From sequence record OQ992558.1: 64,000 bases of DNA; one strand, given 5' to 3'. Source of the DNA: Escherichia phage L14. Shown here one piece after another: positions 10,737 to 30,976 of the stretch (its first letter is position 1; every line of letters begins with the position of its first letter). A model generated the notes under the pieces. That model did no database searches and was not told the origin of the DNA. It saw only the letters and a program-made list of their open reading frames with translations. The translations under genes and the position numbers were made by a program.

Positions 10737-13001
10737 TCATAATTTACAGGATGAACAATCTTCAGCTTTTGGAGTTTCTATTTCATAATCATCAGTACCA
10801 GAACCATCGCGTGTATTATGATAATAGAAATTTTTAATGCCATAATACCATCCGTATAGCATGTCATCAATCATTATTGACATTGGAACCTTTCCTTTTG
10901 GAAAAATCTGCGGATCATAATATGTATTCGCTGAAGCTGATTGACATACCCATTTCAGCATAATAGCTACCTGCGTAAGATAAGGTTTATTACCTTTCTT
11001 GGCTAATTTCCATGTATAATCATAGAGGTCTATGTTATGCTCAATATTCGGAACAACTTGATTAAATGAACCATCTTTTGATTCTTTAACACTTACCGGT
11101 CCGCGTGGAGGCTCGATGCCGTTTGTACTGTTAGATACCTGACTGGACGATTCACAAGGCATAAGTGCTGATAATGTGCTATTACGGATGCCAAAGAGCT
11201 TAAGGTCTTCCCGCAGCGCCGACCAGTCACAAACGTATTTTGGAGCTGCGATTTGGTCAATCTTTTTATTGTACCAGTCGATAGGTAATTCGCCTCGAGA
11301 CCAACGAGTGTCTGAATAATATTCGCAAGGTCCTTTTTCTTTGGCGAGCTTAATGGATGCTTTAATGAGTCCATACTGTAATCTCTCAAATAATTCATGT
11401 GTTAAATCGTTAGCATCTTCATAAGAAGCAAAGTTACTTGCCAGCCAAGCTGCATAGTTGGTAACACCTACACCAAGGTTACGGCGCTTTTTAGCTTTTT
11501 CTGCTTCAGGAACTGGATATCCTTGGTAATCCAACAGATTATCAAGAGCACGAACTTGAACTTCTGCCAATTCATTAATTTTATCTTGGTCTTGCCAGTC
11601 AAAATTATCTAGTACGAATGCAGAGAGAGTACACAATCCAATTTCAGCATCAGGACTATTCACATCATTTGTTGGAATAGCAATTTCACAGCACAAGTTA
11701 CTCTGACGAATAGGCGCCTTTTCACGAATAAACGGAGTATAGTTATTCGTATTATCAATGAACTGCACATAAATCCTTGCGGTTCCTGAACGTTCAGTCA
11801 TGAGCAATTCAAATAGTTCACGGGCTTTAATACGCTTTTTACGAATATTAGGGTCTTTTTCTGCTGCTTCGTATAATTCACGGAAACGGTCTTGGTCTTT
11901 AAAATAAGAATAATAAAGCTCGCCACCCATTTCATGCGGACTGAACAAAGTAATGTAATCATTCTTTCCGAATCGTTCCATCATCAAATCATTCAGTTGA
12001 ACACCATAATCCATATGACGAATGCGGTTTTCTTCTACGCCTTTGTTATTTTTCAAAACAAGAAGATTTTCAACTTCCAAATGCCAAATAGGATAATAAG
12101 CAGTAGCAGCGCCGCCACGAATTCCACCCTGTGAGCATGATTTAACAGCAGTCTGAAAATGTTTCCAAAAAGGAATAACACCAGTATGGCGTACTTCACC
12201 CATGCCAATCTTAGAACCTTCAGCACGAATCATACCAACGTTAATACCAATTCCAGCGCGTTTAGAGATATATTCAACAATTGAAGCAGAAGCCTTATTG
12301 ATAGACTTCAGTGAATCGCCTGCCTCAATAACAACACATGAACTAAACTGCCGAGTTGGAGTACGGCAACCAGCCATAATAGGAGTTGGTAATGAAATCT
12401 GTCGAGTAGATACCGCTTCATAAAAACGGATAACATGTTTTAATCTATCAACAGGTTCATCTTGATGCAATGCCATTCCAATAGTCATAAATGCAAACTG
12501 TGGAGTTTCATAAATTTGACCAGTGGTTTTATCTTTAACTAGATATTTTTCTTTTAATTGCATCGCCCCGGAATAAGTAAATTCCATATCCCGCTCGTGC
12601 TTAATTTTTGATTCTAAAAATGTAATTTCTTCTGCTGAATATTTTGACAATAATTCAGGGTCATATTTACCTTCATTTACACAGTAAGAAATATGGTCAA
12701 TAAATGAACGTGGTTCATACTGCCCATAAACATGCTTACGAAGAGCGAACATTAAACAACGTGCAGCTACATATTGATAATCAGGCTCTTCAACCGAAAT
12801 AGAATTCGCAGCGGCCTTAATGACAATAGTCTGAATATCATCAGTTGTCATTCCATCACGGAGATAAGATTTAATATTTTCATATAATTCATAAGGATCT
12901 ACTGATGTTCCTTCAGCTGCCCAAGATAAAACTTTAATAATTTTTTGCGGGTCAAAGCTCTGAGAAACACCACTACTTTTGATAACATTAATTAATTGCA
13001 T
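10737..13001 (-). CDS. nrdA: ribonucleotide reductase large subunit (754 aa)
   Basis: Class Ia RNR alpha; C-terminal CSSCKL-type tail; length equals T4 NrdA. Confidence 0.92.
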   Translation of the reverse strand: MQLINVIKSSGVSQSFDPQKIIKVLSWAAEGTSVDPYELYENIKSYLRDGMTTDDIQTIVIKAAANSISVEEPDYQYVAARCLMFALRKHVYGQYEPRSFIDHISYCVNEGKYDPELLSKYSAEEITFLESKIKHERDMEFTYSGAMQLKEKYLVKDKTTGQIYETPQFAFMTIGMALHQDEPVDRLKHVIRFYEAVSTRQISLPTPIMAGCRTPTRQFSSCVVIEAGDSLKSINKASASIVEYISKRAGIGINVGMIRAEGSKIGMGEVRHTGVIPFWKHFQTAVKSCSQGGIRGGAATAYYPIWHLEVENLLVLKNNKGVEENRIRHMDYGVQLNDLMMERFGKNDYITLFSPHEMGGELYYSYFKDQDRFRELYEAAEKDPNIRKKRIKARELFELLMTERSGTARIYVQFIDNTNNYTPFIREKAPIRQSNLCCEIAIPTNDVNSPDAEIGLCTLSAFVLDNFDWQDQDKINELAEVQVRALDNLLDYQGYPVPEAEKAKKRRNLGVGVTNYAAWLASNFASYEDANDLTHELFERLQYGLIKASIKLAKEKGPCEYYSDTRWSRGELPIDWYNKKIDQIAAPKYVCDWSALREDLKLFGIRNSTLSALMPCESSSQVSNSTNGIEPPRGPVSVKESKDGSFNQVVPNIEHNIDLYDYTWKLAKKGNKPYLTQVAIMLKWVCQSASANTYYDPQIFPKGKVPMSIMIDDMLYGWYYGIKNFYYHNTRDGSGTDDYEIETPKAEDCSSCKL

Positions 13002-13870: not shown

Positions 13871-14190
13871 CATTATGTTCAGATAAGGTCGTTAATCTTA
13901 CCCCGGAATTATATCCAGCTGCATGTCACCATGCAGATCAGACTATATCTTCAACTTGTTAAAGCAAGTTGTCTATCGTTTCGAGTCACTTGACCCTACT
14001 CCCCAAAGGGATAGTCGTTAGGCATTTATGTAGAACCAATTCCATTTATCAGATTTTACACGGTAAGTAACTAATCCTGATGAAATTATTAAAGGGTAGT
14101 CCTACAATTTAGCACGGGATTGTCTACTAGAGAGGTCCCCCGTTTAGATAGATTACAAGTATAAGTCACCTTATACCTAGGCCTCAATTA
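13871..14190 (-). other. group I self-splicing intron in td, 320 nt, no internal ORF
   Basis: 5' end UAAUUGAGGCCUAGGUAUAAGGUG..., 3' end ...UAACGACCUUAUCUGAACAUAAUG match recalled T4 td intron ends; exon 1 ends in U, intron ends in G. Confidence 0.85.
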
Positions 14191-14739
14191 ACCCAAGAAA
14201 ACATCTACACTGCGTTGATACCATTGTAAATCAAGATAACCATTACGCACATTAAACTGATAGAACATATGACAAGGTGGTAATGCCATATATTTAAGTT
14301 CAGCTGGATTCCACGCAGAAACAATTTGACGCCTATCACTTGGTAGTTTTTTAATACGATCAATAACTTCTATAATTTGGTCTACACCGCCAAAATCGCG
14401 CCACTGTTTTCCATAAATTGGGCCAAGTTCACCACTATGGTATCCTAAATCTTTTGCCTGATTTTCGTAATTTTCATCCCAAACTGTTTTGCCTTGGATT
14501 AACGAATCATGCTGAATTAATCGTAAATCATTGACATTTGTGCTTCCTGATAAAAACCAAAGTAGCTCAGCAATGCAAGCTTTCCAGGCGAGCTTCTTAG
14601 TTGTTACCGCAGGAAAACCTTTAGTTAAATCCCAGCGTAATTTAGTACCGAATAAAGCAATTGTTCCTGTGCCTGTTCGGTCATCGGTTTCATAGCCATT
14701 TTCAAAAATGTCTTTAATTAAATCTTGGTATTGTTTCAT
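14191..14739 (-). CDS. td: thymidylate synthase, exon 1 (183 aa)
   Basis: TS active-site region ...LPPCHMFYQF...; ORF hits stop UAA exactly at intron 5' end. Confidence 0.9.
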
Positions 14740-15151: not shown

Positions 15152-15978
<827 letters not shown>

Positions 15979-20772: not shown

Positions 20773-23700
20773 ATGGCCGAGATTAAAAGAAAGTTCAGAG
20801 CAGAAGATGGTCTGGACGCAGGTGGCGATAAAATAATCAACGTAGCTTTAGCTGATCGTACCGTAGGAACTGACGGTGTTAACGTTGATTACTTAATTCA
20901 AGAAAACACAGTTCAACAATATGATCCAACTCGTGGATATTTAAAAGATTTTGTAATCATTTATAATAATCGTTTTTGGGCAGCAACGGATAATATTCCA
21001 AAACCTGCTGGAAATTTTAATAGAATTCGTTGGAAAGCATTACGTACTGATGCTGTATATACAACCGTATCATCTGGACCATATCAATTAAAATCCGGAG
21101 AAGCAATTTCAGTAGATACATCAGTTGGCAATGACATTGAGTTTACTTTACCACCTTCTCCGCTTGATGGAGAAACCGTAATAATTCAAGATATCGGTGG
21201 AAAACCTGGCATAAATCAGGTTAAAATAAATTCTTCAAATCAGAGTATTGTCAATTTTAGAGGTGAACAGGTACGTTCAGTTTTAATGACTCATCCAAAG
21301 TCACAGATGGTATTCATTTTTAATAACCGTTTGTGGCAAATGTATATTGCTGATTATAGCAGAGAAGCTGCGATTGTTACTCCATCGACTGCATATCAAG
21401 CACAATCTAATGATTTTATCGTGCGTAGATTTACTTCCGCTGCGCCGATTAATATTAAACTTCCAAGATTTGCCAATCATGGAGATATCATTAATTTCGT
21501 TGATTTAGATAAATTAAATCCACTTTATCATACAATTGTTACGACATATGATGAAACGACGTCAGTGCAAGAAGTTGGAACTCATTCCATTGAAGGCCGT
21601 ACATCGATTGACGGTTTCTTGATGTTTGACGATAATGAGAAATTGTGGAGATTGTTTGACGGGGATAGTAAAGCACGTTTACGCATTATAACAACTAATT
21701 CAAATATTCGTCCAAATGAAGAAGTCATGGTATTTGGTGCGAATAACGGAACAACCCAAACAATTGAACTTCAGCTTCCGACTGATATTTCTGTTGGTGA
21801 TACTGTTAAAATTTCCATGAATTACATGAGAAAAGGACAAACAGTTAAAATCAAAGCTGCTGGTGAAGATAAAATTGCTTCTTCAGTTCAATTGCTGCAA
21901 TTCCCAAAACGTTCAGAATATCCGCCTGAAGCTGAATGGGTAACAGTTCAAGAATTAGTTTTTAATGGTGAAACTAATTATGTACCAGTTTTACAGCTTG
22001 CTTATATCGAAGATTCTGATGGAAAATACTGGGTTGTACAGCAAAACGTTCCAACAGTTGAAAGAGTCGATTCTTTAAATAATTCTACTAGAGCAAGATT
22101 AGGCGTAATTGCTTTAGCTACACAAGCTCAAGCAAATGCTGATTTAGAAAATTCTCCACAAAAAGAATTAGCAATTACTCCAGAAACGTTAGCTAATCGT
22201 ACTGCTACTGAAACTCGCAGAGGTATTGCAAGAATAGCAACTACTGCTCAAGTAAATCAGAACACCACATTCTCTTTTGCAGATGACATTATCATCACTC
22301 CTAAAAAGCTGAATGAAAGAACTGCTACAGAAACTCGTAGAGGTGTTGCTGAAATTGCTACGCAGCAAGAAACTAATACAGGTACTGATGATACTACAAT
22401 CATCACTCCTAAAAAGCTTCAAGCTCGTCAAGGTTCTGAATCATTATCTGGTATTGTAACTTTTGTATCTACTGCAGGAGCTACTCCAGCTTCTAGTCGT
22501 GAATTAAATGGTACGAATGTTTATAATAAAAACACTAATAATTTAGTTGTTTCACCTAAAGCTTTGGATCAGTATAAAGCTACTCCAACGCAACAAGGCG
22601 CAGTAATTTTAGCAGTTGAAAGTGAAGTAATTGCTGGACAAAGCCAAGAAGGATGGGCAAATGCGGTTGTAACACCAGAAACGTTACATAAAAAGACATC
22701 AACTGATGGAAGAATTGGTTTAATTGAAATTGCTACGCAAAGCGAAGTTAATACAGGAACTGATTATACTCGCGCAGTCACTCCTAAAACTTTAAATGAC
22801 CGTAGAGCAACTGAAAGTTTAAGTGGTATAGCTGAAATTGCTACGCAAGTTGAATTCGACGCAGGCGTCGACGATACTCGTATCTCTACACCATTAAAAA
22901 TTAAAACCAGATTTAATAGTACTGATCGTACTTCTGTTGTTGCTCTATCTGGATTAGTTGAATCAGGAACTCTCTGGGACCATTATACCCTTAATATTCT
23001 TGAAGCAAATGAGACACAGCGTGGTACACTTCGTGTAGCTACACAAGTTGAAGCTGCTGCAGGAACATTGGATAATGTTCTAATAACTCCTAAAAAGCTT
23101 TTAGGTACTAAATCTACTGAAGCACAGGAAGGCGTTATTAAAGTTGCAACTCGGTCTGAAACTGTAGCTGGAACGTCAGCAAATACTGCTGTATCTCCAA
23201 AAAATTTAAAATGGATTGTGCAGAGTGAACCTACTTGGGCAGCGACTACTGCGATAAGAGGTTTTGTTAAAACTTCGTCTGGTTCAATTACATTCGTTGG
23301 TAATGATACAGCTGGTTCAACACAGCCATTAGAATCATATGAGAAAAATGGTTATGCAGTATCACCATATGAATTAAATCGCGTATTAGCAAATTATTTG
23401 CCATTAAAAGCAAAAGCCGTAGATAGTAATTTATTAGATGGTCTAGATTCGCTCCAGTTCATTCGTAGGGACATTGCACAAACAGTTAATGGTTCACTAA
23501 CCTTAACCCAACAAACGAATCTGGGTGCCCCTCTTGTATCATCTAGTACTGCTACATTCGGTGGATCAGTTTCAGCAAATAGTACATTAACTATTTCTAA
23601 TACTGGAACGGCAACTCGTCTGATTTTTGAGAAAGGACCTCAAACTGGAACAAACCCGGCTCAAACGATGACAGTCAGAGTGTGGGGAAATCAATTTAGC

Positions 23701-24642
23701 GGGGAATCAGACACAACACGTTCTACCGTATTTGAAGTTAGTGATGAAACGTCTAGTCATTTTTATTCTCAGCGTAATAAAGCTGGAAATATAACATTTA
23801 ATATCAACGGTACAGTAACACCGATAAATGTTAATGCTTCAGGAACATTGAATGCAAATGGTGTAGCAACATTTGGTAATTCAGTCACTGCAACTGGTGA
23901 AATTATTTCTCGAAGCGCAAATGCTTTCCGTGCTATTAGCGGAAATTATGGTTTCATTGTTCGCAATGACGGGTCAGTAACGAATTTTATGCTTACTGCA
24001 TCGGGTGATCAGACTGGTGGATTTAATGGATTACGTCCATTGTCCATTAATAATCAATCTGGGCAGGTCACAATTGGTGAAAGCTTGATCATTGCTAAAG
24101 GTGCTACTATAAATTCAGGTGGTTTAACTGTTAACTCGAGAATTCGTTCTCAGGGCACTAAAACATCTGATTTATACACCCGCGCTCCAACATCTGATAC
24201 TGTAGGATTCTGGTCAATTGATATTAACGATTCAGCCACTTATAACCAGTTCCCGGGTTATTTTAAAATGGTTGAAAAAACTAATGAAGTGACTGGGCTT
24301 CCATACTTAGAACGTGGCGAAGAAGTTAAATCTCCTGGTACATTGACTCAGTTTGGTAACACACTTGATTCACTTTACCAAGATTGGATTACTTATCCAA
24401 CGACCCCAGAAGCACGTACCACTCGCTGGACACGTACATGGCAAAAAACTAAAAACTCTTGGTCAAGTTTTGTTCAGGTATTTGATGGAGGTAACCCTCC
24501 TCAACCTTCGGATATAGGAGCAATTCCATCTGATAATGGAATAATAGGTAATCTTACTATTCGTGATTTCTTACGAATTGGTAATGTTCGCATTATTCCT
24601 GACCCAGTGAATAAAACTGTTAAATTTGAATGGGTTGAATAA
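20773..24642 (+). CDS. 34: gp34 long tail fibre proximal subunit (1289 aa)
   Basis: Length equals T4 gp34; first of the plus-strand 34-35-36-37-38 late operon. Confidence 0.93.
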   Translation: MAEIKRKFRAEDGLDAGGDKIINVALADRTVGTDGVNVDYLIQENTVQQYDPTRGYLKDFVIIYNNRFWAATDNIPKPAGNFNRIRWKALRTDAVYTTVSSGPYQLKSGEAISVDTSVGNDIEFTLPPSPLDGETVIIQDIGGKPGINQVKINSSNQSIVNFRGEQVRSVLMTHPKSQMVFIFNNRLWQMYIADYSREAAIVTPSTAYQAQSNDFIVRRFTSAAPINIKLPRFANHGDIINFVDLDKLNPLYHTIVTTYDETTSVQEVGTHSIEGRTSIDGFLMFDDNEKLWRLFDGDSKARLRIITTNSNIRPNEEVMVFGANNGTTQTIELQLPTDISVGDTVKISMNYMRKGQTVKIKAAGEDKIASSVQLLQFPKRSEYPPEAEWVTVQELVFNGETNYVPVLQLAYIEDSDGKYWVVQQNVPTVERVDSLNNSTRARLGVIALATQAQANADLENSPQKELAITPETLANRTATETRRGIARIATTAQVNQNTTFSFADDIIITPKKLNERTATETRRGVAEIATQQETNTGTDDTTIITPKKLQARQGSESLSGIVTFVSTAGATPASSRELNGTNVYNKNTNNLVVSPKALDQYKATPTQQGAVILAVESEVIAGQSQEGWANAVVTPETLHKKTSTDGRIGLIEIATQSEVNTGTDYTRAVTPKTLNDRRATESLSGIAEIATQVEFDAGVDDTRISTPLKIKTRFNSTDRTSVVALSGLVESGTLWDHYTLNILEANETQRGTLRVATQVEAAAGTLDNVLITPKKLLGTKSTEAQEGVIKVATRSETVAGTSANTAVSPKNLKWIVQSEPTWAATTAIRGFVKTSSGSITFVGNDTAGSTQPLESYEKNGYAVSPYELNRVLANYLPLKAKAVDSNLLDGLDSLQFIRRDIAQTVNGSLTLTQQTNLGAPLVSSSTATFGGSVSANSTLTISNTGTATRLIFEKGPQTGTNPAQTMTVRVWGNQFSGESDTTRSTVFEVSDETSSHFYSQRNKAGNITFNINGTVTPINVNASGTLNANGVATFGNSVTATGEIISRSANAFRAISGNYGFIVRNDGSVTNFMLTASGDQTGGFNGLRPLSINNQSGQVTIGESLIIAKGATINSGGLTVNSRIRSQGTKTSDLYTRAPTSDTVGFWSIDINDSATYNQFPGYFKMVEKTNEVTGLPYLERGEEVKSPGTLTQFGNTLDSLYQDWITYPTTPEARTTRWTRTWQKTKNSWSSFVQVFDGGNPPQPSDIGAIPSDNGIIGNLTIRDFLRIGNVRIIPDPVNKTVKFEWVE
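22150..23220 (+). repeat. intragenic repeats in gp34 (~6 copies of A-T-x-x-R-R-G-[IV]-A-x-I-A-T-Q...T-P-K-x-L)
   Basis: Motif recurs in the translation (RTATETRRGIARIAT, RTATETRRGVAEIAT, DGRIGLIEIAT, LSGIAEIAT, RGTLRVAT, QEGVIKVAT). Confidence 0.7.
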
Positions 24643-25828: not shown

Positions 25829-26479
25829 ATGGCTGATTTAAAAGTAGGTTCAACTGTAGGTGGATCTGTCATTTGGCATCAAGGAAATTTTCCATTGAAT
25901 TCAGCCGGTGACGATGTACTCTACAAATCATTTAAAATATATTCAGAATATAATAAACCACAGGCAGCTGATAACGATTTCGTTTCTAAAGCTAATGGTG
26001 GTACTTACACCGGTCCAATTACTATTAATTACGGGGTAAATAGTTATCTTCAATTAAGTAATAATGAAACCCCCATTCGAATTCGTTCTGGTGGCGGTAC
26101 CGGTAATACTCTTGTAGTTGGCGGCTCTTCCGGCGGTATTAGTTTTAGACCTGCAGGTAGTGAAATCACTACTGGACAAATTACTATTACACCAGAAGGT
26201 TTGACAACATTTACCAGGGCTGTAACGGCTCCATCGGTAACTGTTACATCTACTCCTTCCGCAGCATCTGATGTTACTCGCAAAGATTATGTTGATGGAG
26301 CAATAAATACTGTTACAGCAAATGCAAACTCTAGGGTATTACGCTCTGGAGACACTATGACAGGAAATTTAACTGCGCCAAACCTTTTTTCACAGAATCC
26401 TGCATCTCAACCTTCACACGTTCCACGATTTGACCAAATCGTAATTAAGGATTCTGTTCAAGATTTCGGCTATTATTAA
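25829..26479 (+). CDS. 36: gp36 long tail fibre distal connector (216 aa)
   Basis: Position and size. Confidence 0.85.
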
Positions 26480-26487
26480 GAGGACTT

Positions 26488-29472
26488 ATGGCTACTTTAA
26501 AACAAATACAATTTAAAAGAAGCAAAATTGCAGGTCAACGTCCTGCAGCTTCAGTATTAGCCGAAGGTGAATTGGCTATAAACTTAAAAGATAAAACAAT
26601 TTTCACAAAAGATGACTCAGGTAGTGTTATAGAATTAGGTTTAAAATATGGAGGAACAATTGATGGTTCTTTAACTGTTAATGGAAATATAATTGGAAAT
26701 TTAACAGGTAACGCTGCAACTGCAACGAAATTAAAAACAGCACGAAAAATTAATGGTATATCCTTTGATGGGTCAAAAGATATCACGCTAACTCCATCTG
26801 ACATAAATGTCAATAGCACAACGTTTATAAAAAATAATGGCGAATTACCTGTTGATGCTAATTTAGATACGTATGGGCCTGTTGAAGAATATCTTGGAGT
26901 TTGGTCGAAAGCAACTTCAACCAACGCTCAACCAGCAAATAAATTTCCAGAAGAAAATGCTGTAGGTGTGCTAGAAGTATTTGTGGCCGGTCAATTTGCT
27001 GGTACTCAGAGATATACAACTAGATACGGAAATGTTTATATTCGTTCCTTGACTGCTACATGGAACGGAGTAAATGGTCCGTGGAGTGTGTGGCGAAATA
27101 TTCAATCCGGTACTCGTCCACTGTCAACAACAATTGATCTTAATGATCTAGGAGGCGCTGAACACTTTGGTTTGTGGCGAAATAGTTCAAATTCCATTGC
27201 TACCTTTGACAGAAATTTCCCAGAAGAGGGGTCGTCAGCTCAAGGTCTTTTGGAAGTATATGAAGGTGGAAAATATTCTCGTACACAAAGATATACAACC
27301 AGATTTGGTGTTGTATATACTCGTTGTCTTGCTGCCGCGTGGGATGCTTCCGCGCCTAAATGGGGACCGTGGCAACAAGTCGGTAATGTCACACCAGCGA
27401 CTTTCTATGACGGAGATCTGAATGATTTTAAAACCCCTGGGTTATATAATATTTTAGGCACTGATGCCGTTATTAACTGTCCTACAGGTGAAGGTTTGCC
27501 GCCTGTTATTATTGGTTTACTGGAAGTTAAACAGCGTGCTTCCGGTGGTGCTATTTTCCAAAAATTTACTACTGCCGGAACGGGTGCAACTACTCGCGGA
27601 CGTATTTTTGAGCGTGCATATACTGGTGGTGCGTGGGGCGCATGGAACGAAGTATATACATCTTATTCTCTGCCAATTACTTTGGGTATGGGTGGTATTA
27701 AAACTCAATTAGCGGAGCTAGATTGGCAAACATTTGATTTTGTTCCTGGTAGTATGTTTAGCGTTCCTTTGAACAAAATAAAGAACATGCCAGCAAATAT
27801 GGATTGGGGCACGATTGATGGAAACTTGATTATGTTTTCCGTCGGTCCTAGCGAACACACTAGCACAGGGCGTACTGTTCAGGTTTGGCGTGGTACTGTA
27901 TCCCAGACAAACTACCGTTATTTTGTCGTTCGTGTATTCGGTAATTCAGGAAATAGAGCTTGCACAGTTCGTCGTGTTGTTCTTGAAGATGGTCGCCACA
28001 AATGGACAGCGCAACAAGATTTTAATGGTGCTGTTAACTTCGGTGCTCCTACCAATTTTAACTCTACTGTTAACCTTAATAACACTACCACTTTTAAAAC
28101 AGAAGTTAAATTTCGCTCATTGAATGCATTCCGTATGTATGGCGGAAAATTTGGTACATTTTTACGTAATGATGGAGAGAGTCTTTATATTCTTTCCACC
28201 GACGAAGATGATCAAGATGGAAACTTTAATACAAATAGACCTTTCCGTTATGAATTAAGAACTGGTGATGTTACTTTGGGTGGTGCTAGTGGTGCTAACG
28301 TTTTAAAATTAAAACGTGATTCTCTCACCGCATTTTTTGGTGGTGATATTAACATGAAAGGCTTGATGACTTTTGACGCCGGACGTTTAGGATCACGAGA
28401 TTATTTTAAATTTAACCATTGGGGTGATAGCAATAACGCTCGTGATAACATTATTCAGTTAGAAGATAGCAAAGGCGTTCATTTTTCCACTGAACGTACT
28501 TTAGCGACTGGTGCAATTAAAACTAAATTCTTTGGTGAAGTTGAATCAACTGGTCGATTGACTATTAAACGTCCGGGTGATGCGATTGTATTATCGACTA
28601 CAGCCAGCAACTCTTTGCATATTCGTGGTGACGTAGACGGGACTGGTAACTGGTATATTGGCAAGGGTGGTGCTGATAATGGATTAGCGTTCTATAGTTA
28701 TGCTACTAATGCTGGTGTATACATTACAAACGGAGGGGATATCGCGCTAAGTCCAAAAGGTGTCGAAATGGCTCAGGTCAATAACGTTCGATTATATGTT
28801 CATGGTGAACGTTGGACCGCTAGTCAACCAGGTGATTGGGGTAGTCAGTGGCAAGTGGAAGCGCCAATATTCGTCGATCATGGTTATGTTTCACAGGATT
28901 GTTATTATCCAATTATTAAAGGAAGAAGTGTAATCACCAATCAAGGGTATGTAACTGCCGTCGATCTTGGTATTCGTCGTGTCAATAACAATTGGGGACA
29001 AGCAATTATTCGTGTTGGATCTGCAGAGGCATCGCCAGCGGCTGGACACCCTAACGCGGTATTTGAATTTCATTACGACGGTACTTTCTATTCTCCTGGT
29101 AATGGTAATTTTAGCGATGTGTATATTCGTTCTGACTCCCGTCTCAAGATTAATAAAGAAGAATTAGAATATGGAGCGGTCGAAAAAGTTTGCCGACTAA
29201 AAGTTTATATTTACGATAAAGTTAAGTCTATTAAAGACCGTAGTGTTATTAAACGTGAAGTTGGTATTATTGCTCAGGACCTTGAAAAGGAATTGCCGGA
29301 AGCTGTATCTAAAGTTGAAGTTGATGGATCTGATGTTCTGACAATTTCTAACTCTGCTGTGAATGCTCTTTTAATTAAGGCCATTCAGGAAATGAGCGAA
29401 GAAATTAAAGAATTGAAAACACCTTTCTTCACTAAAATTGCTCGCAAAATTAGTAATTATTTTAAATTCTAA
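26488..29472 (+). CDS. 37: gp37 long tail fibre distal subunit (994 aa) with C-terminal chaperone-like domain
   Basis: Position/size; N-terminal region similar to gp36 N-terminus; internal duplicated QRYTTR-G-VY-R-L motifs. Confidence 0.9.
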
Positions 29473-29504
29473 CAGCAGGGGGCTTTGCCCCTTTGGAGAA
29501 AATT

Positions 29505-30287
29505 ATGGCAGTAGTTGGTGTTCCTGGTTGGATTGGTAGTTCATCCGTAAATGAAACAGGACAACGATGGATGAGTCAAGCGGCTGGTCAATTAAGATTG
29601 GGTATTCCTTGCTGGATGAGTCAATTTGCAGGTCGCTCAAGAGAAATTATTCACACGCTTGGAGCAGACCATAACTTCAATGGTCAATGGTTCCGAGATA
29701 GATGTTTTGAGGCAGGTAGTGCACCTATAGTGTTTAATATCACTGGAGATTTAGTATCATATTCTAAAGATGTTCCTTTATTCTTCATGTACGGAGATAC
29801 ACCGAATGAATATGTTCAGTTGAACATACATGGTGTAACGATGTATGGCCGTGGCGGGAATGGCGGTAGCAATAGTCCTGGCTCAGCTGGGGGTCATTGT
29901 ATTCAAAATGATATTGGTGGGAGACTAAGAATTAATAATGGTGGAGCTATTGCTGGCGGCGGTGGCGGCGGGGGCGGCGGGTATTATTCTCCTTTTTCAC
30001 AAATGAGATTGACCTTTGGCGGTGGCGGCGGTCGTCCGTTTGGCGCACCGGGCGGATCTATTGATATGCAATCAGGAGCAACTGCTGGTACTATTTCTGC
30101 GCCAGGCGCAGGGTCTGTGAACGGTATCTACAACGGCGGGTCTGGTGGTGAAGTTGGCTCCGCAGGAGGTAGATGTAATATTCGTGGTCAAGGATATGAA
30201 TACGATGGCGGAGCTGCTGGTTATGCCGTCATAGGGTCTACACCGACATGGCAAAACGTTGGAGCAATATATGGTCCAAGAGTATAA
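29505..30287 (+). CDS. 38: gp38 tail-fibre adhesin with glycine-rich motifs (260 aa; ATG at 29505 with GGAG RBS)
   Basis: Poly-Gly runs ([18 protein letters not shown]) as in T2-type gp38; unlike the 183-aa T4 chaperone. Confidence 0.85.
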
Positions 30288-30319: not shown

Positions 30320-30976
30320 ATGGCAGCACCTAGAATATCATTTTCGCCCTCTGATATTCTATTTGGTGTTCTAGATCGCTTGTTCAAAGATAACGCTACC
30401 GGGAAAGTTCTTGCTTCCCGGGTAGCTGTCGTAATTCTTTTGTTTATGATGGCGATTGTTTGGTATAGGGGAGATAGTTTCTTTGAGTACTATAAGCAAT
30501 CAAAGTATGAAACATACAGTGAAATTATTGAAAAGGAAAGAAATGCACGCTTTGAATCTGTCGCCCTGGAACAACTCCAGATAGTTCACATATCATCTGA
30601 GGCAGACTTTAGTGCGGTGTATTCTTTCCGCCCTAAAAACTTAAACTATTTTGTTGATATTATAGCATATGAAGGAAAATTACCTTCAACAATAAGTGAA
30701 AAATCACTTGGAGGATATCCTGTTGATAAAACTATGGATGAATATACAGTTCATTTAAATGGACGTCATTATTATTCCGACTCAAAATTTGCTTTTTTAC
30801 CAACTAAAAAGCCTACTCCCGAAATAAACTACATGTACAGTTGTCCATATTTTAATTTGGATAATATCTATGCTGGAACGATAACCATGTACTGGTATAG
30901 AAATGATCATATAAGTAATGACCGCCTTGAATCAATATGTGCTCAGGCGGCCAGAATATTAGGAAGGGCTAAATAA
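30320..30976 (+). CDS. t: holin (218 aa)
   Basis: Near-identical to recalled T4 holin T (MAAPRISFSPSDILFGVLDRLFKDNATGKV...). Confidence 0.95.
   Translation: MAAPRISFSPSDILFGVLDRLFKDNATGKVLASRVAVVILLFMMAIVWYRGDSFFEYYKQSKYETYSEIIEKERNARFESVALEQLQIVHISSEADFSAVYSFRPKNLNYFVDIIAYEGKLPSTISEKSLGGYPVDKTMDEYTVHLNGRHYYSDSKFAFLPTKKPTPEINYMYSCPYFNLDNIYAGTITMYWYRNDHISNDRLESICAQAARILGRAK

Follow-up and report, generated by a model that had tools for sequence, protein, structure and literature searches.

The window analysed here is a stretch of 64,000 nucleotides from Escherichia phage L14 (OQ992558.1) and represents part of a Tequatrovirus (T-even) genome. Its first 20 kb are 96–98% identical to other Tequatroviruses, and DNA comparison of the gp37-gp38 region revealed 89–94% identity to T6, many T6-like coliphages and Yersinia phages; an identical record was not found in the phage collection. 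The C-terminus of gp37 is surrounded by the long-tail-fibre operon, with the following features at and around it:

20773–24642, + strand: gp34, long-tail-fibre operon, 1289 aa
24651–25766, + strand: gp35, long-tail-fibre operon
25829–26479, + strand: gp36, long-tail-fibre operon
26488–29472, + strand: gene 37, precursor of the distal long-tail-fibre subunit (ORF of 994 aa plus stop)
29116–29130, + strand: D877-V-Y-I-R881, predicted to be the C-terminus of gp37 after maturation and the strand that makes up the gp38-docking tip (conservation; PMC7917993)
29131–29148, + strand: S882-D-S-R-L-K887, catalytic motif in which Ser is the nucleophile and Lys, five residues further on, the general base (alignment of homologues; roles predicted)
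29131–29469, + strand: intramolecular chaperone (IMC) or Peptidase_S74 domain, S882–F994, 113 aa (Pfam PF13884, 6f45_A, AF2/Foldseek)
29350–29463, + strand: long C-terminal helix, about residues 955–992, predicted to form a trimeric coiled coil (AF2 monomer helix 105–142)
29419–29469, + strand: 17-residue tail T978–F994 (TPFF...FKF), following ELK, where the conserved part of the family alignment ends (comparison with T2 and the family)
29505–30287, + strand: gene 38, adhesin with glycine-rich motifs, 260 aa (Pfam GP38 and Gp38_N, PDB 6f45_D)
30320–30976, + strand: holin t, 3' of gp38

The initial annotation had placed an intramolecular-chaperone-like domain of ~110 residues with a candidate self-cleavage site at the end of gp37 (29130–29472). 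The peptide quoted there is indeed in frame at this place, and its coordinates are right within one base: the Arg881 codon ends at 29130, and the gp37 stop codon (29470–29472) at 29472. The proposed size agrees with a domain length of 113 residues if Ser882 is taken as the first residue, or 112 if Asp883 is. The codons of the residues at issue are located at 29128–29130 (R881), 29131–29133 (S882), 29134–29136 (D883) and 29146–29148 (K887). An overlapping gene in another frame or on the other strand was rejected, as no ORF of at least 60 aa lies inside 29130–29472; the sole ORF of this size besides gp37 that overlaps the region (+ strand, 28967–29167) extends 38 bases into it. Further upstream, residues 521–587 of gp37 (window 28048–28248, + strand) match Gp34_trimer (PF21446, E 1.4e-12), which indicates that gp37 has a module in common with the trimerisation domain at the C-terminus of gp34, the proximal fibre protein.

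The C-terminal region of gp37 belongs to the Peptidase_S74 family. The search against the S74/IMC profile proposed in the initial annotation was clearly positive, with PF13884 (Peptidase_S74, "Chaperone of endosialidase") scoring 39.6 bits (E 6.4e-10) on whole gp37 and 44.2 bits (E 2.4e-11) on its last 114 residues; the curated threshold is 22 bits. Residues 882–940 cover profile positions 1–57 of 58, so the match begins exactly at Ser882. When this 114-residue segment was used as the phmmer query against 1.84 billion representative proteins, 1309 relatives passed E<=1e-3, of which 57 also passed E<=1e-10, and the match is situated at the C-terminal end in almost all of the 150 relatives listed among the 1309. 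The gp37 domain likewise runs up to the stop codon, that is, to the extreme C-terminus of the fibre protein.

By sequence, the closest solved relative is gp37 of Salmonella phage S16 (6F45). It was matched (6f45_A) at E 1.1e-3 by the single sequence and at E 2.8e-13 in a profile search of the PDB, which also detected the ICA domain of MyRF (7dc3, E 3.5e-4); the putative tail fibre 8jov was also matched in the PDB sequence searches. T5 pb1 and endoNF gave no direct phmmer or hmmsearch match in the PDB, with either the single sequence or the profile. Their similarity to gp37 is thus too weak for direct sequence matches, and they are linked to it only through Pfam and weak Foldseek matches.

To this we added an AF2 monomer model of gp37 residues 851–994, in which model residue 1 is gp37 residue 851. 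Its mean pLDDT is moderate (76.7), with 82–91 in the core. The model consists of a helix (47–53), four strands forming two beta-hairpins with a helix (79–85) between them, and a long helix (105–142). In a Foldseek search of the PDB, the first ten places are taken exclusively by IMC/ICA domains (7dc3, 3gud, 4uw8, 3gw6), with MyRF 7dc3 (E 3.7e-5, TM 0.66) ranked first. The model superposes best on this compact MyRF form, with TM 0.66 versus 0.42–0.49. Foldseek E-values for T5 pb1 and endoNF are weak (0.03–0.4), because the intertwining of three chains cannot be captured by modelling a monomer. In T5 pb1 and MyRF, a C-terminal triple coiled coil has been proposed as the start or driving force of trimerisation (PMC4690869, PMC8326128). 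By analogy, the C-terminal helices of gp37 may form a triple coiled coil that nucleates trimerisation.

The catalytic motif of gp37 is intact. We aligned 190 retrieved proteins to the gp37 query and counted, at each position, the sequences aligned there. Ser882 (162/162), Asp883 (164/164) and Lys887 (164/164) are invariant, and Arg885 and Leu886 are kept in 149 and 150 of 164 homologues, respectively. The strand just upstream is also conserved, with D in 105/133, V in 107/140, Y in 86/142, I in 99/149 and R in 98/159; DVYIR is a conserved feature of the gp37-type subfamily, is the same in T6 and fPS-65, and is retained as VYIR in T2. A Ser-x4-Lys dyad has been reported for endoNF (S911/K916), MyRF (S587/K592) and T5 pb1 (S1264/K1269) (PMC8326128, PMC4690869, PMC3742443), and S882 and K887 of gp37 have the same spacing. 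In endoNF and T5, an Arg of the neighbouring chain located 14 residues before the Ser (R897 and R1250, respectively) has been proposed to act as folding sensor and oxyanion stabiliser (PMC8326128, PMC4690869). There is no Arg at this offset in gp37, where residue 868 is Tyr. MyRF likewise has no such Arg (PMC8326128), so its absence from gp37 need not be disqualifying. In the homologue alignment, Arg881 (−1) and Arg885 (+3) of gp37 are conserved.

Comparison with known systems places this domain in a well-described setting. T6 gp37 is the same gene, also 994 aa, and is identical in sequence from Ser882 to Phe994. The domain is 100% identical at the protein level in phage a51 and 98.2% identical in the Tequatrovirus Yersinia phage fPS-65, whose gp37 (g246) has the same length and is 89% identical over all 994 aa with no gaps; the ~11% amino-acid divergence is found before the IMC, in shaft and tip, whereas the IMC feature itself is the same. 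The locus order g34-g35-g36-g37-g38-t of the window is shared by T6, fPS-65, fPS-2 and fPS-90. The IMC and a DVYIR^SD cleavage site (^, cut) were already drawn for fPS phage gp37 in 2021 (PMC7917993). T2 gp37 is longer (1341 aa) and ~43% identical in the IMC region over its last 144 residues, and its junction NVYIR-SDIRLK matches VYIR-SD-x-RLK of the window. S16 gp37 gives only a weak single-sequence match (E 1e-3), has S-D-R-R-I-K in place of S-D-S-R-L-K and DLNVS in place of DVYIR before the cut, and is accompanied by a gp38 adhesin of the same type.

Beyond the T-even phages, K1F endosialidase (3GW6), the GA-1 neck appendage (3GUD) and T5 pb1 (4UW8) share with gp37 the Pfam family and the Ser-x4-Lys dyad. 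In all of them the domain is C-terminal and follows a trimeric beta-structure, with an alpha/beta body and then a coiled-coil helix (predicted in gp37). The T5 IMC has 133 aa versus 113 aa in gp37, and the gp37 model shows no clear counterpart of the long "tentacle" hairpin found in endoNF and T5. For S16, T5, K1F and MyRF, it is known that the domain frees itself after trimerisation, that a Ser-to-Ala change prevents this, and that folding depends on the domain (PMC7917993, PMC4690869, PMC8326128). T4 gp37 occupies the same fibre position and is homologous in its N-terminal and shaft region (Gp34_trimer repeat). However, T4 gp37 has no IMC and binds the receptor with its own tip, and T4 gp38 is a chaperone outside the fibre (PMC3157838, PMC7289586). 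In T4, gp38 and gp57A serve as separate chaperones.

A gp38 of the matching kind is present immediately downstream. It matches Pfam GP38 (E 3.1e-71) and the attachment domain Gp38_N (E 4e-20), as well as S16 gp38 (6f45_D, E 2.7e-49) and 9v85_A (E 3.6e-80) in the PDB. It is an adhesin of the T2/T6/S16 type that would cap the processed gp37 tip. The gp38 ORF as listed begins at a TTG (29493; MEKIMAVVG...). The true start is most likely ATG 29505, giving 260 aa, because the Gp38_N profile begins at residue 5, which corresponds to this ATG, and a GGAG ribosome-binding site lies 7 nt upstream of it. A GC-rich hairpin, (A)GGGGC-TTT-GCCCC(T), lies on the + strand at 29477–29492, after the g37 stop and just ahead of the ribosome-binding site of g38. 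A terminator and promoter scan of the g37-g38 junction made no calls, this hairpin included; at the same site in fPS-65, a terminator is annotated on the opposite strand.

For S16, removal of the IMC is described to lay bare the gp38 docking surface, and for the fPS phages DVYIR is predicted to be the last strand of mature gp37, on which the N-terminal domain of gp38 docks (PMC7917993). The initial annotation had suggested that trimerisation is followed by removal of the domain, which exposes the tip for gp38. This reading is supported, because such a sequence of events has been reported for S16 gp37-gp38 and predicted for the 89%-identical gp37 of fPS-65.

Taken together, it is very probable that residues 882–994 of gp37 are a C-terminal IMC of the Peptidase_S74 type, which would be self-released after trimerisation by a cut at Arg881-Ser882 and thereby expose the gp38 site. 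Homology and the literature suggest the following course. Three gp37 chains would first associate via the C-terminal helices of the domain to form the coiled coil, and the folded chaperone trimer would then serve as a template on which the fibre tip preceding it folds in the C- to N-terminal direction. Correct folding of the trimer would be followed by cleavage: Ser882, with Lys887 activating it, would attack the bond that joins it to Arg881, and each chain would lose its 113-residue domain. The new C-terminus, ...DVYIR881, would make a flat trimeric tip, on which the tryptophan-bearing N-terminal domain of gp38 could dock.

The exact bond needs closer consideration. The bond drawn in the initial annotation, YIRS|DSRLK, is probably one residue off. 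A cut after the serine (Ser882-Asp883) by the same IMC and the same mechanism, which would leave the Ser on mature gp37, is quite improbable. There is some precedent for ambiguity in the wider group, as the phi29 appendage has been modelled with the Ser retained, although in weak density and as the only such case (PMC4690869). PMC7917993 gives the cut as DLNVS^SDRRIKK for S16 gp37, which is the closest relative to have been characterised, and predicts DVYIR^SD for the fPS phages. T5 pb1 is cut at Thr1263-Ser1264 and its mature fibre has no density for the Ser; in the K1F endosialidase, the Ser departs with the chaperone as in T5 pb1 (PMC4690869). A Ser-Lys dyad mechanism with a cut preceding the Ser has been described for T5, K1F and MyRF (PMC4690869, PMC8326128, PMC3742443), in which the Ser hydroxyl is the nucleophile that attacks the carbonyl of the preceding residue. 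Because the cut precedes the catalytic Ser in S16, T5 pb1 and K1F, the bond expected in gp37 is Arg881-Ser882, probably between bases 29130 and 29131. A cut here would leave 881 residues in mature gp37 and set free an IMC of 113 residues, the length reported for S16 as well.

It is also conceivable that the domain serves for trimerisation or as a chaperone and stays in the virion, or that it is cut off by a separate host or phage protease. The C-terminal auto-chaperone region of the P22 tailspike indeed stays uncleaved (PMC4690869), and the lack of an Arg at −14 could be taken to point in the same direction. However, the strict conservation of the Ser/Lys dyad would be unexpected if catalysis were dispensable, and gp38 requires an exposed tip. 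Moreover, PMC3157838, citing Drexler et al. 1986, gives C-terminal proteolytic cleavage followed by gp38 capping for T2/T6 gp37, a processing that has been known since 1986 and for T2 rests on experiment (Drexler, Riede and Henning), and autocleavage of the last 113 residues after trimerisation is described for recombinant S16 gp37 in PMC7917993 (structure 6F45, Dunne et al. 2018). We thus consider retention or foreign processing very improbable. The remaining alternative, that the motif is a chance resemblance and the gp37 C-terminus is plain fibre shaft, has in its favour only the shortness of S-D-x-R-x-K, and its probability is negligible. The resemblance pointed out in the initial annotation goes far beyond chance, as PF13884 scores above its cut-off, HMM E-values range from 1e-10 to 1e-13, Ser, Asp and Lys are invariant, the model matches IMC/ICA folds, and almost all of the 150 relatives listed among the 1309 carry the domain C-terminally. 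Chance resemblance was rejected on these grounds.

What had been put forward as a candidate is established knowledge for the gp37 gene family. Publications on T2/T6, on S16 and on the fPS phages, which are nearly identical, already describe the domain, its cleavage site and its role, and the locus offers no new biology in this respect. It has two practical consequences. Mature gp37 should be annotated as residues 1–881, given the predicted cut, and the IMC should be kept in constructs designed to yield folded fibre tips or gp37-gp38 complexes.

The only part for which we found no published description is the 17-residue tail T978–F994. Neither T2 gp37 nor most members of the family have it, and among the phmmer matches listed most family alignments end at query position 97–99. 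Similar tails of the Pro-aromatic-aromatic-basic kind (ELKKPWWKKILGL, ELKRPWWKKLLRL, LETPWYKKIYSKLFN) occur in only a few relatives, which are 35–45% identical. The tail might form a module of its own within the released chaperone, such as an amphipathic helix that binds membranes or a partner, but we regard this as unlikely; it could equally be a mere extension of the coiled-coil helix. If it were such a module, it could localise fibre assembly or target the released fragment.

Elsewhere in the window, a tRNA scan found none. A group I intron match (RF00028) was found on the − strand at 13919–14200 (70.3 bits). The full model (1–253) is packed into only 282 nt, and thus an inserted homing-endonuclease ORF is apparently missing. 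The match sits between the large ORF 10737–13001 and the ORFs 14188–14739 and 15152–15733, which we take, by T4 gene order, to be nrdA, td and frd.
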